Source of the DNA: Escherichia coli
GTDB lineage: Bacteria > Pseudomonadota > Gammaproteobacteria > Enterobacterales > Enterobacteriaceae
DNA: 64,000 nucleotides
Assembly: GCF_003334765.1 (NCBI RefSeq)
Contig: NZ_QOWT01000009.1
Direction: 5' to 3' (one strand)
The first letter of the stretch is position 1. The number at the start of each line of letters is the position of its first letter. The position numbers and the translations under genes are program-made. Below, in pieces: positions 1 through 172 of the stretch. The notes below the pieces were generated by a model, which was given only the letters and a program-made list of their open reading frames with translations, ran no database searches and had not been told where the DNA came from.

Positions 1-111
1 GATCCCGAGTGTGATTCCCTTTCGATATCAAAAGGGACTGCGGGTATAATTGAGGGTACATTTTTAATCAAACCAAATAAATTATATTAATATCAATATG
101 ATAAAAGAAAT

Positions 112-132
112 TTTCGATTCCGAGTCCGCACC
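112..132 (+). repeat. Orphan 3'-terminal fragment of tRNA-Phe (att-like direct repeat); no complete tRNA in window
   Basis: ttcgattccgagtccgcacca matches the T-arm/acceptor/CCA end of tRNA-Phe as I recall it, with an apparent 2-nt gap; upstream 1-111 is AT-rich and not tRNA-like. Confidence 0.5.
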
Positions 133-142
133 AAATTCATAT

Positions 143-172
143 AAACGGACCTCCACGGAGGTCCGTTTTTCG
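143..172 (+). terminator. Rho-independent terminator (GC hairpin cggacctc/gaggtccg followed by T5)
   Basis: Perfect 8-bp inverted repeat 146-153/158-165 with 4-nt loop, followed by ttttt. Confidence 0.7.

Follow-up and report, generated by a model that had tools for sequence, protein, structure and literature searches.

A regenerated tRNA gene and a fragment of that gene mark the two ends of an integrated genomic island as a general principle (PMC4383910), and arrangements of this kind at the identical tRNA-Phe genes pheU and pheV are already known and published in E. coli. In PAI-CFT073-pheU, a pathogenicity island of the uropathogenic strain CFT073, which extends for ~52.1 kb from an intact pheU to the repeat and carries pap and ireA, a P4-like integrase gene adjoins pheU at one end, and the right junction consists of a DUF4942 remnant, a tail, a 22-nt repeat, a terminator, an integrase fossil and cadC. 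In K-12 MG1655, whose pheU site is empty, the gene order is dicD, pheU, an integrase pseudogene and cadC. This pseudogene, which we take to be yjdQ, is annotated by RefSeq as frameshifted and N-terminally incomplete. Islands at pheV (GI-pheV) sit beside yghD, with a P4-type integrase by the tRNA gene and yee/flu modules at the far end, and their attR is listed as TTCGATTCCGAGTCCGG-CACCA (PMC11537424, Table 1). LEE-negative STEC strains have pheU and pheV insertions whose 3' border carries a 22-bp direct repeat, shifted by one base relative to K-12, with a Z1226-type gene nearby (PMC6174562).

The DNA analysed here, a stretch of 64,000 nucleotides referred to as the window, begins at a junction of the same organization and is otherwise chromosomal. 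Taken as a whole, the evidence makes it very probable that positions 1-133 are the right junction (attR) of a genomic island inserted at pheU by a tyrosine integrase of the P4 type. As a feature this is ordinary and its importance goes little beyond correct annotation, although it marks where core genome gives way to accessory island DNA, at an integration site that is among the best-known hot spots in E. coli. The features are as follows.

1-112, plus strand: right-terminal non-coding island tail, identical to that of strain 300709 and absent from K-12
113-133, plus strand: probable attR core, in which the tRNA-Phe 3' end is partly repeated in direct orientation (T loop, 3' T stem, 3' acceptor strand and ACCA)
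134-296, plus strand: fossil left end of an older P4-type island, comprising the terminator and the leader upstream of its integrase gene
143-170, plus strand: predicted intrinsic terminator, which lies directly after pheU in empty-site genomes and here has no tRNA in front of it
297-490, plus strand: internally deleted P4-like integrase pseudogene, codons 1-11 (297-329) joined to codons 359-421 and the stop codon (331-490)
491-607, plus strand: degenerate homologue of ~120 bases past the CFT073 integrase gene, the end of the recognisable fossil
750-2288, plus strand: cadC, the first core chromosomal gene past the junction and the first complete gene

Positions 113-133 carry the 21-nt string ttcgattccgagtccgcacca, which corresponds to the last 23 nt of tRNA-Phe without two G residues, as 16 + 5 nt (TTCGATTCCGAGTCCG--CACCA), on the same strand on which pheU reads toward cadC. 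An earlier note on this DNA had recognised the tRNA-Phe 3' terminus but placed it at 112-132, one base off. The first 16 nt occur once in the 64 kb window, and ~0.05 chance matches are expected with 2 mismatches tolerated. In alignment with K-12 the only difference within the repeat is in the G run, GGG in pheU vs a single G in the window, which bears out a 2-nt gap that the note had suspected. The copy is two bases short of a perfect direct repeat of the tRNA end, and this does not exclude it from being an attR because one missing base is the norm in this island family. The tRNA body is missing, as had been claimed: ARAGORN finds no tRNA gene across the whole window, a search of 1-3000 against Rfam returns nothing tRNA-like even at E<=10, and the 52 bases preceding position 113 do not align to the tRNA body.

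Comparison with an empty site, which the note had proposed as a check, locates the junction. The intact pheU of K-12 ends exactly at window position 133, and K-12 homology breaks at position 113, where the T loop starts; to the left of this point the window has unrelated AT-rich sequence where K-12 has the tRNA body. To the right the native flank resumes at the position of the tRNA end: the segment from 134 to 749 is identical to K-12, cadC is the first core gene as anticipated and is likewise identical to its K-12 counterpart, and the whole of 113-64000 is collinear with K-12 MG1655 at 99.97% identity. Because of this collinearity the site can be assigned from sequence to pheU on a K-12-like backbone, and a backbone so close to K-12 over 64 kb can thus host a pheU island.

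On the other side of the fragment lies foreign DNA. Bases 1-110 are 30.9% G+C and give no tRNA match, in keeping with the note's description of 1-111 as AT-rich and unlike a tRNA. Positions 1-112 are missing from K-12 and terminate yee-module islands in 1,783 genomes; the tail together with the repeat (1-133) is present in 1,783 of the 5,426 complete E. coli genomes, at pheU and pheV both, and the junction including the pheU terminator (85-175) is present in 1,253 of the 5,426. The window opens (positions 1-2) on the final two bases of the TGA that terminates a DUF4942 gene, and this gene is the last one of the island; in strain 300709, whose sequence is identical over 1-112, the DUF4942 CDS ends at the base equivalent to window position 2. 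DUF4942 is the last gene of the yee module in islands of the P4-integrase type and lies at the far end of tRNA-integrated islands, where the order in relatives is GTPase, Ag43, antirestriction protein, RadC, DUF987, YeeU, CbtA, DUF5983, DUF957 and DUF4942. The sequence upstream of the fragment is therefore the conserved right end of a genomic island abutting the DUF4942 stop codon.

Two minor features of the tail and its carriers are recorded here. Just past the DUF4942 stop codon, window positions 16-37 form a near-perfect palindrome (TCCCTTTCGAT followed by ATCAAAAGGGA), which is unchanged in eight island tails, including a tail type that is only 87% alike. Its RNA fold is not better than that of shuffled sequences (z = 0.19), and a role as a binding site for a protein in the attachment-site arm is possible. 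In strain 300709 (L001, 20751-21900), whose junction is otherwise identical, an IS1 interrupts cadC after 162 bases and the genes from cadB to yjdI, up to dcuS, are missing, a loss of the cad genes that resembles the 'black hole' of Shigella and enteroinvasive E. coli.

The opposite end of the island was sought in relatives with the same junction. The note had predicted an intact 76-nt pheU and a tyrosine recombinase gene to the left, and both are found in YPE10 and CFT073, as follows for these strains and for H3, which is among the closest matches over window 1-12000.

YPE10: 13,620 bases from intact pheU to the repeat, with an integrase gene
CFT073: ~52.1 kb from intact pheU to the repeat, with a P4-like integrase gene adjoining pheU
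H3: pheU island of >50 kb with the same junction, carrying a type VI secretion system and pic

One conserved junction is thus associated with widely varying cargo. No gap-free match to window 1-12000 exists among the 5,426 complete genomes, the best differing by one base in the G run. From the relatives, whose islands measure from 13.6 kb to >50 kb, we infer that this genome has its own intact pheU and integrase gene, and an island whose size probably falls in that range. The likeness to CFT073 is close, with window 85-175 being 98.9% identical with one gap, and an intact pheU with a P4-like integrase, as would be expected here, stands at the other end of the CFT073 island; the two differ in that the CFT073 repeat has GG where the window has a single G. 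The GI-pheV islands differ in their site, in having another flank past ACCA and in lacking an integrase fossil behind it, but the same tail is confirmed at pheV in three genomes.

Two of the sequences with this tail call for comment. The YPE10 insert at pheU (L003, 35572-49260; 13.6 kb) consists, in order, of pheU, a non-P4 integrase gene with its own sequence, IS1, truncated STY4851 and helicase genes, a truncated DUF4942 gene and the usual tail; its integrase belongs to another family and the island is therefore a mosaic. This integrase was also considered as a homologue of the window spacer and was rejected, its best hit (E = 0.012) being on the wrong strand and without real similarity. A 64.9 kb record, NZ_CP173464.1 (L014/L015), is labelled as a circular plasmid and was considered as an excised island that would give attP, but it starts inside the integrase 3' end and is without the att core. 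The record consists of island genes, with the integrase 3' end at one side and the island tail at the other, and has the appearance of a repeat-bounded contig from a chromosome, not of a plasmid or excised circle.

A more complex history is seen in the spacer between the repeat and cadC. The note had claimed a perfect intrinsic terminator at 146-170, and this holds up with slightly wider bounds: a perfect inverted repeat (143-154/157-168) is followed by TTTTT, with a folding energy of -18.4 kcal/mol (z = -3.9) that was equalled in 0 of 200 shuffles. A G+C-rich hairpin with a T run placed after a transcription unit is what is expected of a Rho-independent terminator, and this one is predicted to act as such; it is identical in K-12, where it stands immediately after pheU. 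Between the intact pheU and the island integrase gene of CFT073 there is a version that differs by one SNP. Window 113-290 as a whole is 85% identical to the CFT073 segment that comprises the pheU 3' end, the terminator and the integrase leader, and at 323-607 the window resembles the 3' end of the CFT073 integrase gene and ~120 bases downstream of it (70% identity).

Searches of the window with the CFT073 pheU-island integrase (tblastn) place codons 1-11 at 297-329 in a weak match (8/11 identical, E = 0.16), codons 359-391 at 331-414, and codons 397-421 with the stop codon at 416-490, the two C-terminal pieces together giving E = 4e-10. The gene is homologous to P4-type integrases and lacks a complete open reading frame with a catalytic domain; with an in-frame stop, a frameshift and ~1.05 kb missing it is a pseudogene, and RefSeq has a frameshifted integrase pseudogene at ~332-491 in K-12 and other genomes. 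Whereas that annotation is N-terminally incomplete, the homology described here covers the terminator, the leader and, in the weak match, the first 11 codons, which argues for an internal deletion of the integrase gene and not a 5' truncation. By homology, then, 134-607 is what remains of the left end of an earlier P4-type island, and the pheU terminator and spacer that pass as 'native' derive from that fossil island. The fossil is present identically in K-12. As the spacer up to ~607 is the remnant of an earlier island of the same kind that is fixed in E. coli, K-12 included, homology indicates that pheU has been struck at least twice. No second tRNA-Phe fragment closing the fossil island was found within the window. 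Of the two copies in CFT073, one lies at attL and the other behind attR, and they are 85% identical over 189 shared bases.

The missing G residues bear on the origin of the repeat itself. Nearly all genomes with the same junction have GG and hence a repeat of 22 nt, as in the LEE-negative STEC insertions, vs 21 nt in the window, so that one of the two missing G residues belongs to the normal, published form. Among the 1,253 junction genomes the single G is shared, over the full 91-base query, only by YPE10 and fS149a. Since the tails of YPE10, fS149a and the window differ from one another by SNPs, the second loss is either recurrent or an error, and the single-G form could be a sequencing error. 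Three genomes also have the GG form at pheV junctions beside yghD, the spot at which pheV stands in empty-site genomes, and the tails there fall into two types only ~87% alike. Despite the identity of the pheU and pheV genes, the variant tracks the island tail and not the site. Other published attR variants differ from the tRNA left of GGCACCA, that of EC958 (GGGCATCA) differing also within it, and they go with integrase type (PMC11537424).

Two accounts of this repeat, both tentative, have to be weighed. In the first, the fragment is the original 3' end of pheU, displaced by strand exchange in the T loop, and the G losses are later mutations in a sequence that had become useless. Agreement with the tRNA sets in precisely at the first T-loop base, and the right flank is native chromosome, both as such a displacement would leave them. 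P4-like integrases acting on phe, leu and asn tRNA genes are reportedly associated with attB sites that start in the T loop, with which the position of the break agrees. The general model in which a displaced fragment marks the island end is moreover stated in PMC4383910. Against this, the same one-G deletion is shared by pheU and pheV junctions and by two diverged tail types, and independent identical mutations would be unparsimonious; other attR variants, substituted at several positions of the T loop and T stem, keep GGCACCA (all but EC958) and track integrase type. Displacement of the original tRNA end is thus a possible but less likely account.

Because the GG form occurs at both sites with two tail types, and because the other variants differ mostly to the left of GGCACCA, the form with one G missing probably comes from the island and travels with it. 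In the established model of such junctions, the integrase recombines the attachment site of the island with the 3' end of pheU. The far (left) end of the island, beyond the window, then has an intact pheU with the integrase gene after it, while at the near end the DUF4942 gene and its 110-base tail abut the partial copy of the tRNA end and the chromosome resumes with cadC. The left part of the copy, up to GG, is most likely the island's own imitation of the tRNA end, derived from attP and carried from site to site, and strand exchange would be confined to the terminal GGCACCA. The further loss of a G leaves CGCACCA, which may weaken or abolish excision by the integrase. Repeats of ~190 bases (85%) such as those in CFT073, far longer than the 22-nt core, could support RecA-dependent loss of the island. 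The full sequence of events, with an island-borne attachment-site copy, exchange only in GGCACCA, and CGCACCA locking the island in place so that only homologous recombination between the longer repeats is left, is offered as a speculative proposal. A repeat that travels with its island would bear on where P4-type integrases cut.

While attR of a pheU island is the reading that we favour, the island itself could have been almost entirely lost, with the tail and repeat alone persisting and an intact pheU standing within some hundreds of bases of the window's left edge. Decay is common in these elements, YPE10 and CFT073 both having a truncated DUF4942 gene at this end, and the spacer before cadC is itself an earlier island that has shrunk to ~470 bases. 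Yet 39 of 40 genomes sampled from the 1,783 with the tail have an annotated DUF4942 or DUF957 gene under the match or a pheU island that goes on upstream of it, the 40th being the island contig labelled as a plasmid; the smallest island seen with the same junction is 13.6 kb, and the stop codon at the start of the window is in register with the DUF4942 gene. Loss of the island is accordingly most improbable here. That there is no island at all, with misread bases making 113-133 (or 112-132) the end of a normal pheU, or with a chance match, has only the identical downstream flank in its favour and can be dismissed, since the K-12 alignment and the searches with ARAGORN and Rfam refute a true pheU 3' end, the 52 bases before 113 cannot be aligned to a tRNA body, and the exact position and the shuffle count exclude chance. 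The note's proposal of an att scar left by a pheU-targeted integrative element is accordingly upheld by the junction, the orthology with K-12, the island tail and the far end seen in relatives.

In the remainder of the window few differences from K-12 are seen: apart from the G run and a single REP array, they amount to ~11 SNPs or single-base indels. The REP array (36304-36580 and 39056-39136) is composed of 100-base units matching Rfam naRNA4 and lies between yjdN and yjdM; there are apparently three tandem units in the window vs about six in K-12, as judged from 100-base blast offsets and not counted directly. Across phnE (~39100-39950) the window differs by one SNP (39645) from K-12, whose record gives phnE as a frameshifted gene, and it probably shares that frameshift. 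Two structured RNAs score above the Rfam gathering threshold: the sRNA STnc630 at 30473-30638, near pmrR/pmrB, and a selenocysteine insertion element at 63431-63485, which by collinearity with K-12 is probably that of fdhF.
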